DNA of 63,300 nt, filler included, from Sphacelaria rigidula (Eukaryota): NCBI GenBank assembly GCA_964200075.2. It is 6 parts of 6 records of this genome, joined end to end, with 100 filler letters (N's around TTAATTAATTAA, not from the genome) between each part and the next. Parts side by side here need not be neighbours in the genome. Positions count along the whole stretch, not along the records: positions 10,570 to 21,036 come from CAXNAA020006444.1; 5 more parts are not named here. One strand, 5' to 3'. The notes below the pieces were generated by a model. The model did not search any database and had not been told where the DNA came from. It saw only the letters and a list, made by a program, of their open reading frames with translations. Of this stretch, positions 13,945 to 14,425 are shown one piece after another (the first letter of the stretch is position 1; each line of letters opens with the position of its first letter). The translations under genes were made by a program, and so were the position numbers.

Positions 13945-14425
13945 CTCTTTTTCGAAATGTTTTTTGTAAAGTAACGTATATCCTGCAGTAAAATTATAAT
14001 AGAATCAGTATCAGAATGAATTATTTTATATAAAACTTATTTTTTTTTTAGATTTTGCCATAAGAGGTTACAGCTGCTGATATGTGCGGGGCTGATATTA
14101 TTCTTTCAGAAATAATAGAACATCTTGTTAAATGTTCTTGAAAAAAACAAGAGTTTTCGTATCACCTTGAAAGAAAAAATCTTGAAAAAATTTAAAGCAT
14201 TTTGATTAATTGATGATGAGTAAACATTTTTTTTTTAATTTCACTGTTCTAATTACATTATGTAAAGTCTCAATAATGAGTTTTCGTGTAAATTCATTAC
14301 TTCCGTTCTTTGAGGATAAGTTTTCATACCAAATCTACCATAAAGCGAATTCATTATTAATTTAACAACTGATCCCTCCATTTAATTCGTCTTTTTATCA
14401 GTAATAATATTACTGAAAATATTTT
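13945..14425 (-). pseudogene. dpoB: fragment of a protein-primed family-B DNA polymerase (mitochondrial linear plasmid/organellar dpoB type)
   Basis: AT-rich island (~20-30% GC in sampled lines). It translates to NIFSNIITD..*..VVKLIMNSLYGRFGM (motif B, 14325-14363), ISAPHISAAVTSYGKI (~14051-14098) and IIHSDTDSII (motif C, SDTDS at 14001-14015), in the correct order and disrupted by stops and frameshifts. Confidence 0.85.

Follow-up and report, generated by a model that had tools for sequence, protein, structure and literature searches.

The window analyzed here, a stretch of 63,300 nucleotides of Sphacelaria rigidula DNA, carries on its minus strand an AT-rich island of ~490 bp that is genuine but defunct, a fragment of an organelle- or plasmid-type protein-primed family-B DNA polymerase (pPolB) gene in algal nuclear DNA. 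What is new here is that DNA runs of the same alga contain high-depth relatives of this nuclear copy that keep the reading frame. We consider it likely that the island is a piece of pPolB from an AT-rich, organelle-type replicon that was captured in the nucleus and that an open-frame relative persists at organelle-like copy number.

A decayed polymerase fragment

The window joins six pieces of ~10.47 kb through N44-TTAATTAATTAA-N44 spacers (10470-10569, 21037-21136, 31604-31703, 42170-42269, and 52736-52835), so that features found in different pieces need not be neighbors in the genome. The island lies in the piece at 10570-21036, where it occupies 13945..14435 on the minus strand (490 to 491 bp). 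With a GC content of 0.263 versus 0.491 and 0.438 in its 1-kb flanks, it bears out the AT-rich island described in a first-pass annotation of this DNA, and the composition steps at both of its edges are sharp (~13935-13950 and ~14425-14435). The left edge at 13945 stands as first placed; the right edge, originally set at 14425, is shifted by weak homology that reaches ~10 bases further, to ~14435.

Read on the minus strand, the island runs from motif B through a helix to motif C, and the three peptides named in that annotation are all recovered in canonical order, amid stops and frameshifts, each in a frame of its own: frame A holds VVKLIMNSLYGRFGMK (14381..14253), a second frame SAAVTSYGKI (14161..14048), and a third one HSDTDSIII (14036..13839). 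The proposed HMMER check against DNA_pol_B_2 (PF03175) returns a match, in which the 42-aa frame-A ORF alone scores 27.2 bits (E 2.4e-6, profile positions 373-399) against a curated Pfam cut-off of 25.8 bits, as the one match among six pieces scanned. The closest relative is P0001, an uninterrupted 126-aa ORF on a 642-bp ENA contig that was retrieved as one protein among eight candidates in a word-indexed search; tblastn with P0001 covers 14381..14051 of the window in two frames (E 2e-19 and 1e-14) and, together with the profile match, upholds the earlier identification of a protein-primed PolB fossil. The island is also colinear with residues 384-512 of P0002, a complete 630-aa pPolB on a 7.4-kb Logan contig (Pfam E 9e-79, 265.9 bits), with motif B (KLIMNSLYGRFGM) at 14360-14322 followed by HSDTDS at ~14018-14001 on the minus strand, and overall it corresponds to about residues 360-527 of that protein, or roughly one-quarter of the gene.

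In the window, tblastn of full-length P0002 matches residues 384-527 only, so that exonuclease motifs I-III, motif A, and the KxY motif are all absent; with P0001 as with P0002, the same search finds no further polymerase pieces anywhere in the 63 kb. Against bacterial plasmids, blastn of the island returns short low-complexity matches only. No terminal inverted repeats, direct repeats, or target duplication were found to bracket the island; missing terminal inverted repeats are expected if the transferred part was an internal fragment only.

The reading frame has decayed into six pieces on the minus strand. Piece 1 (14283..14381, frame A) reads MEGSVVKLIMNSLYGRFGMK... and contains motif B, has a TAA directly upstream, and ends in an A-run with a 1-base deletion at 14280/14281. 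Piece 2 (LIIETLHNVIRTVKLKKK, 14227..14280) follows in a second frame and aligns to P0001 residues 36-52, and piece 3 (VYSSSINQNALNFFK, 14181..14225) returns to frame A just after a short deletion relative to P0001. Frame reading and alignment place piece 4 (FFFQGDTKTLVFF, 14140..14178) in a third frame; piece 5 (EHLTRCSIISERIISAPHISAAVTSYGKI, 14051..14137), the helix preceding motif C, has a stop codon at its end, and piece 6 (VLYKIIHSDTDSIIIL, 13989..14036) carries motif C with its DTDS. A tblastn HSP of P0002 extends from there to 13947, and by ~13950 homology past motif C is no longer recognizable. A read-through of the island, built by coordinates with X placed at the five breaks, is 75% identical to P0001 (81/108) and 45% identical to P0002 (52/116). 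A stop stands before motif B, the frame is broken or shortened by small deletions in at least five places, and a further stop lies inside, so that the island encodes nothing; it belongs to protein-primed PolB by descent and is not a working gene.

Affinities of the polymerase

P0001 itself scores 34.4 bits against DNA_pol_B_2. An exhaustive phmmer search with this sequence against 1.84 billion representatives yielded only 40 matches at E ≤1e-3; after P0002, those that cover the larger part of the fragment stay at or below 41% identity, and the third-best match is a basidiomycete DNA polymerase (Coniophora). Matches this few and this distant indicate that the lineage is poorly sampled. Seven loci in JGI metagenomes match P0001, six of them at 27-30% identity and the seventh over 19 residues only (68%), and no close relatives of P0002, P0046, or P0057 were found in IMG/VR. 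The sole match in a PDB search is the phi29 polymerase (E 1.2e-10), and the best match in a phage collection reaches 26.5% identity (101 bits). Two side observations concern the smaller relatives. P0001 and the window ORF share an MEG start, although the P0001 contig has room upstream, and judged by this start the P0001 gene may be truncated there too. P0012 (80 aa) carries a degenerate motif B, with SSLCG instead of NSLYG, and is apparently one more copy in decay, in a different genome.

Classic plasmid enzymes are 900-1200 aa long and have an N-terminal terminal-protein extension. P0002 has its Exo I motif near residue 20 and is without an N-terminal terminal-protein extension. By phmmer, P0002 scores 146-296 bits with 38 rows made up of land-plant, fungal, and mitochondrion-linked polymerases and relatives without a source label, versus 67 bits with L029, 55 bits with L011, and 41-44 bits with phi29-like polymerases among the outside references, and it has no match to L030. 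These references comprise the Polinton-like L030 and L029 and three phi29-like phage polymerases, with only three Polinton-like rows in all. Of the mitochondrial-type and unlabeled group, the window read-through matches 37 rows; it has no match to any Polinton-like or phi29-like row. The proteins closest to P0002 are ~600-690 aa long and 35-36% identical to it (258-296 bits), and all 12 organism-named rows among its best 120 relatives are land-plant entries called “DNA polymerase,” of the type found on mitochondrial plasmids, one of them marked mitochondrion. The motif forms in the window equal the consensus of 24 aligned P0002 relatives (KLLMNSLYGRFGM, ..ASAITAYARI, and YYSDTDSI), land-plant, fungal, and mitochondrion-linked polymerases among them, whereas both Polinton-like references fetched carry NSLWGKFGQ as motif B, just as the first-pass annotation had argued from the motif forms.

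Gene neighborhoods point the same way, in that every relative with readable neighbors adjoins mitochondrial genes or a T7-like RNA polymerase. On two small contigs with 25-26% GC, L003 (3-5448) and L002 (2-3783), the order is cob-nad11-pPolB (647 aa), which indicates a putative protist mtDNA with a short dpoB encoded there. L008 (1-21028) and L010 (1-15358) carry nad genes and homing-endonuclease ORFs (LAGLIDADG and GIY-YIG) along with two pPolBs plus a T7-like RNA polymerase, and L009 (1-8600; 8.6 kb, 21% GC) combines a pPolB with a T7-like RNA polymerase; these are the three best “viral” contigs from IMG/VR, and all three are mitochondrial by gene content. The polymerase ORFs of L009 and L010 are split into three under table 11, which hints that TGA may be read as Trp in these contigs. 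In a protein atlas, the features of P0002 lie nearest to clusters labeled Viruses: Preplasmiviricota and Uroviricota, a label that the filing of L008-L010 as viral in IMG/VR may explain.

Maximum-likelihood trees (quick search, SH-aLRT) were built from hand-picked rows, namely, 33 of the best 120 P0002 relatives, seven proteins from the P0001 phmmer search, and 10 locus translations. The window and P0001 group together with a support of 99, and P0002 joins them at 97-99; the trio forms a long branch of its own outside the Polinton-like clade (98-99), on a backbone that is weak (79-93). The phylogeny called for in the first-pass annotation, when unconstrained, thus leaves the trio outside the Polinton-like clade, but an approximately unbiased (AU) test that forces the trio together with the Polinton-like rows (22 hand-picked rows, LG+G4) lowers lnL by 14.5 and does not reject that grouping (p 0.136).

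These data bear on the alternative that the island is the polymerase shard left by a nuclear-integrated Polinton/Maverick, Polinton-like virus, virophage, or other protein-primed virus, an origin that we regard as unlikely. Beyond the AU result and the virus-labeled atlas clusters, this origin draws on what the Polinton-like polymerases L030 and L029 have in common with the island, which is the Pfam family, protein-primed chemistry, and AT-richness (GC 0.31 and 0.26, respectively), on the fact that P0002 is, like the viral enzymes, without a fused terminal protein, and on a brown-algal repeat census in which, in the part of the source available, Polinton sequences account for 0.011% (PMC6418280). 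However, L030 and L029 show 27-31% identity and low alignment scores, and best hits to Polinton-type PolB, which the first-pass annotation had named as the mark of a transposon or virus relic, are absent, P0002 reaching no more than 67 bits there, with three Polinton-like rows only, while its mitochondrial-type and unlabeled relatives start at 146. Motif B in the window is the mitochondrial consensus and not NSLWGKFGQ, and viral genes stand beside none of the relatives with readable context. The L030 polymerase adjoins an A32 ATPase, an rve integrase, and a DJR capsid gene, whereas no such partner genes lie near the island: the piece at 10570-21036, judged by its 92 ORFs of at least 55 aa, contains no integrase, capsid, ATPase, or RNA polymerase domains, which decay could have erased. 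Similarity, motifs, and gene context thus favor the organelle/plasmid type, while a Polinton-like grouping survives the AU test. A phaeovirus origin was dropped in view of the match of the island to PF03175; phaeovirus polymerases are of the RNA-primed, delta-like type.

Nuclear setting and high-depth relatives

The nuclear, brown-algal context claimed for the island from the outset is supported by a spliced clpP gene, a nine-repeat EsV-1-7 protein, and the labels of the sequencing runs. The clpP gene (Clp protease) lies on the minus strand of the island's own piece, with a Pfam-recognized exon at 18038-18295 (E 3.8e-25) and a GT..AG intron at 16733-18081, across which 18082 is joined to 16732; the downstream exon ending at 16732 accounts for the ~2.2 kb first reported between the island and a spliced clpP exon. 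Spliced clpP contigs reach a depth of ~1200-1270 in two RNA-like runs, and the exon at 18038-18295 is alone among 55 minus-strand ORFs in giving a Clp Pfam match. In a different piece, at 39550-40644 on the minus strand, a protein with nine cysteine-rich EsV-1-7 repeats is encoded (E 1.9e-132); according to the available part of a brown-algal genome preprint (10.1101/2024.02.19.579948), this family is strongly expanded in brown algae. Antisense to the EsV-1-7 gene runs a 563-aa open frame (39088-40776), which is probably a by-product of the repeat composition of that gene. A Copia-type gag with a CCHC zinc knuckle (59815-60897, plus strand) marks an LTR retrotransposon remnant. The runs that match the stretch, no RNA run being listed among them, are labeled “algae metagenome.” A T7-like RNA polymerase (PF00940) was found neither in the 92 ORFs of the island's piece nor in 146 ORFs (at least 90 aa) elsewhere in the window. 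Around the island, very abundant dispersed repeats are evident, with host repeats at 11000-11326, 11654-12961, and 15578-16231 reaching summed contig depths of 10^5-10^6 in DNA runs and many alternative joints leading from 11261/11262.

Read evidence consists of contigs only, for which single-copy depth is ~69 in run X1 and ~12.7 in run X4. In these two DNA runs, from two studies, contigs at ~200-1800x single-copy depth match the island at a level of at least 90%. Contigs matching 14231-14345 include one at a depth of 13,580 in X1 and others at 9,112-17,652 in X4, and around 14099, seven contigs sum to 66,350 in X1 and four sum to 23,443 in X4. Three places that are broken in the nuclear copy are intact in these contigs. 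First, the contigs carry one extra base behind 14280, which mends the first frameshift of the window. Second, a loose end at 14231 continues in frame as ..KLKNNFFLVTYHQ (by hand reverse-complement), where P0001 has ..KLKKNLFLVTYHQ and the window has a deletion. Third, a loose end at 14058 continues in frame as ..SYGRILLNKF (again by hand reverse-complement), where P0001 has ..SYGRILVNEF and a stop interrupts the window. By hand check, three of five substitutions listed for the high-depth contigs are synonymous. The frame kept at the three places, together with the high depth, establishes an open-frame relative in the same DNA; the donor-like element thus probably still lives in this alga, with a plasmid, mtDNA, or a repeat family as candidates. 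With these high-depth, frame-keeping contigs in X1 and X4, the view of the first-pass annotation that the lineage hosts a replicon gains support, the linear, free, or mitochondrial form of that replicon being a candidate only. The high-depth variant was not seen among the contigs of two further runs, X3 and X6, which is no firm sign of its absence there.

Depth alone fits a plasmid, mtDNA, or a nuclear repeat alike. Nearby host nuclear repeats reach similar per-contig depths, and X1/X4 depth ratios are 0.8-2.8 for the polymerase contigs and 1.5-2.7 for the nuclear repeats, a resemblance that, with the presence of several variant contigs at one position (seven in X1, four in X4), would be expected if the high-depth matches came from a multi-copy nuclear repeat family that carries a polymerase and the island were one decayed copy of it, with no organelle-to-nucleus transfer. 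We nonetheless think this improbable, since the frame is open at all three readable places at ~25% GC, where chance frames are short, and no second copy is found in the remaining 52 kb of the window. A weak hint to the same effect, as contigs can drop variants, comes from X3, in which repeats stand at 10^3-10^4 yet the island is represented only by the window's own allele, at a depth of 7-9 that is similar to that of the flanks.

At the right junction, single-copy-depth contigs start within the island, at 14336, and extend to ~15379, with no difference from the window in X1 and three in X4; this junction is real because runs from two studies both cross there, and the junction check proposed in the first-pass annotation thus succeeds on the right side, while the left junction is bridged by none of the contigs listed. 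No empty-site joint that skips the island occurs among the 15 of 489 joints listed, and the RNA-like run X6 has zero cover over 13943-14596, which says little about expression. An assembly chimera or a contaminant, such as a fungal endophyte plasmid misjoined to algal DNA, would suit the sharp composition change at both edges and the unbridged left side but is highly improbable, given that the single-copy contigs extend into unique host sequence, that in a third run (X3) the window's allele spans the island at a depth as low as that of the flanks, and that the copy has decayed where the high-depth version has not, which is what a resident nuclear insert should show.

For the reading that we favor, capture of an organelle-type pPolB piece by the nucleus, we infer an organellar source of plasmid nature, the direction of transfer, and the mode of joining as follows. 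The source gene would have resided on a mitochondrial linear plasmid or as a dpoB integrated in mitochondrial DNA, and the captured fragment would have reached from shortly ahead of motif B to shortly past motif C. Capture most likely occurred by end-joining at a break, as with NUMTs, and the fragment would have landed ~2.2 kb downstream of the nuclear clpP exon, among host repeats. After capture, it would have acquired the stop before motif B, the five or more frame breaks and small deletions, and the internal stop. A bolder version, which we put forward tentatively and at somewhat less than an even chance, is that a high-copy protein-primed replicon, equipped with a family-B polymerase of its own, is alive in this alga, either as one mitochondrial linear plasmid or as a few related ones, and that it belongs to a deep lineage known only from assembly contigs (P0001, P0002, and P0012); the island would then be a recent cast-off, diverged by a few percent.

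Relation to known elements and meaning

Nuclei frequently take up organelle and plasmid DNA, which then decays, and fragments of linear-plasmid polymerases land in other genomes, with copies integrated in mitochondrial or nuclear DNA. The polymerases of plant and fungal mitochondrial linear plasmids (Silene vulgaris M9NCP6, Beta vulgaris, the Erythroxylum mitochondrion, and Coniophora olivacea A0A896YSL2) belong to the same Pfam family as the island, show the same forms of motif B, the helix, and motif C, and are likewise AT-rich; they are 31-35% identical to the read-through and score 220-256 bits with P0002. They differ in being 800-1000 aa long with an N-terminal extension, whereas P0002 has 630 aa and no such extension; furthermore, terminal inverted repeats and a T7-like RNA polymerase, as in these plasmids, are not seen in the window, and the host here is a brown alga. 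The dpoB genes of protist mtDNA (~600-690 aa; L003/L002) are the best-scoring group for P0002, fall in the same length class, and are without a fused terminal protein; the contigs that carry them have a GC content of 0.25-0.26, and the polymerases are only ~31% identical to the window fragment. A dpo gene is present in the mtDNA of Ochromonas danica, according to the available part of PMC4814812. The island resembles NUMTs and NUPTs in being a short, noncoding, decaying intergenic fragment of foreign composition, without target duplication or terminal repeats, and in having a high-copy source in the DNA of the same cells; the difference is that its source may be a plasmid.

An earlier sign of linear-plasmid-type elements in brown-algal mitochondria is the T7-like RNA polymerase gene in the mtDNA of Pylaiella littoralis (Rousvoal et al. 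1998, as cited in PMC4814812, itself available in part); the latter source also mentions plasmid-derived sequence in Pylaiella mtDNA. That case, as far as this partial source goes, concerns an RNA polymerase in the mtDNA of another species, whereas the island is a DNA polymerase fragment in nuclear DNA. The first-pass annotation knew of no such plasmid in brown algae, and its statement agrees with the literature searched, in which neither a pPolB plasmid nor a dpoB gene was found reported from brown algae; supplementary tables of genome papers might list such sequences. The main text of the brown-algal genome preprint (10.1101/2024.02.19.579948) is free of the words plasmid, polinton, maverick, and NUMT. 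A circular plasmid without a polymerase was called the first mitochondrial plasmid from any stramenopile in 2024, in the accessible part of PMC11528492.

The fossil itself is ordinary, and its value is as a pointer to a high-copy relative. If a living replicon is indeed present, brown algae would have their first organelle plasmid with a polymerase and, going by the statement in the accessible part of PMC11528492, so would stramenopiles. Once assembled, the donor would widen the range of hosts in which protein-primed organelle plasmids occur and give the pPolB tree a further branch, one that is long and poorly sampled. It could also explain the stray T7-like RNA polymerase in Pylaiella mtDNA, and it would provide a dated marker of organelle-to-nucleus transfer in seaweeds.
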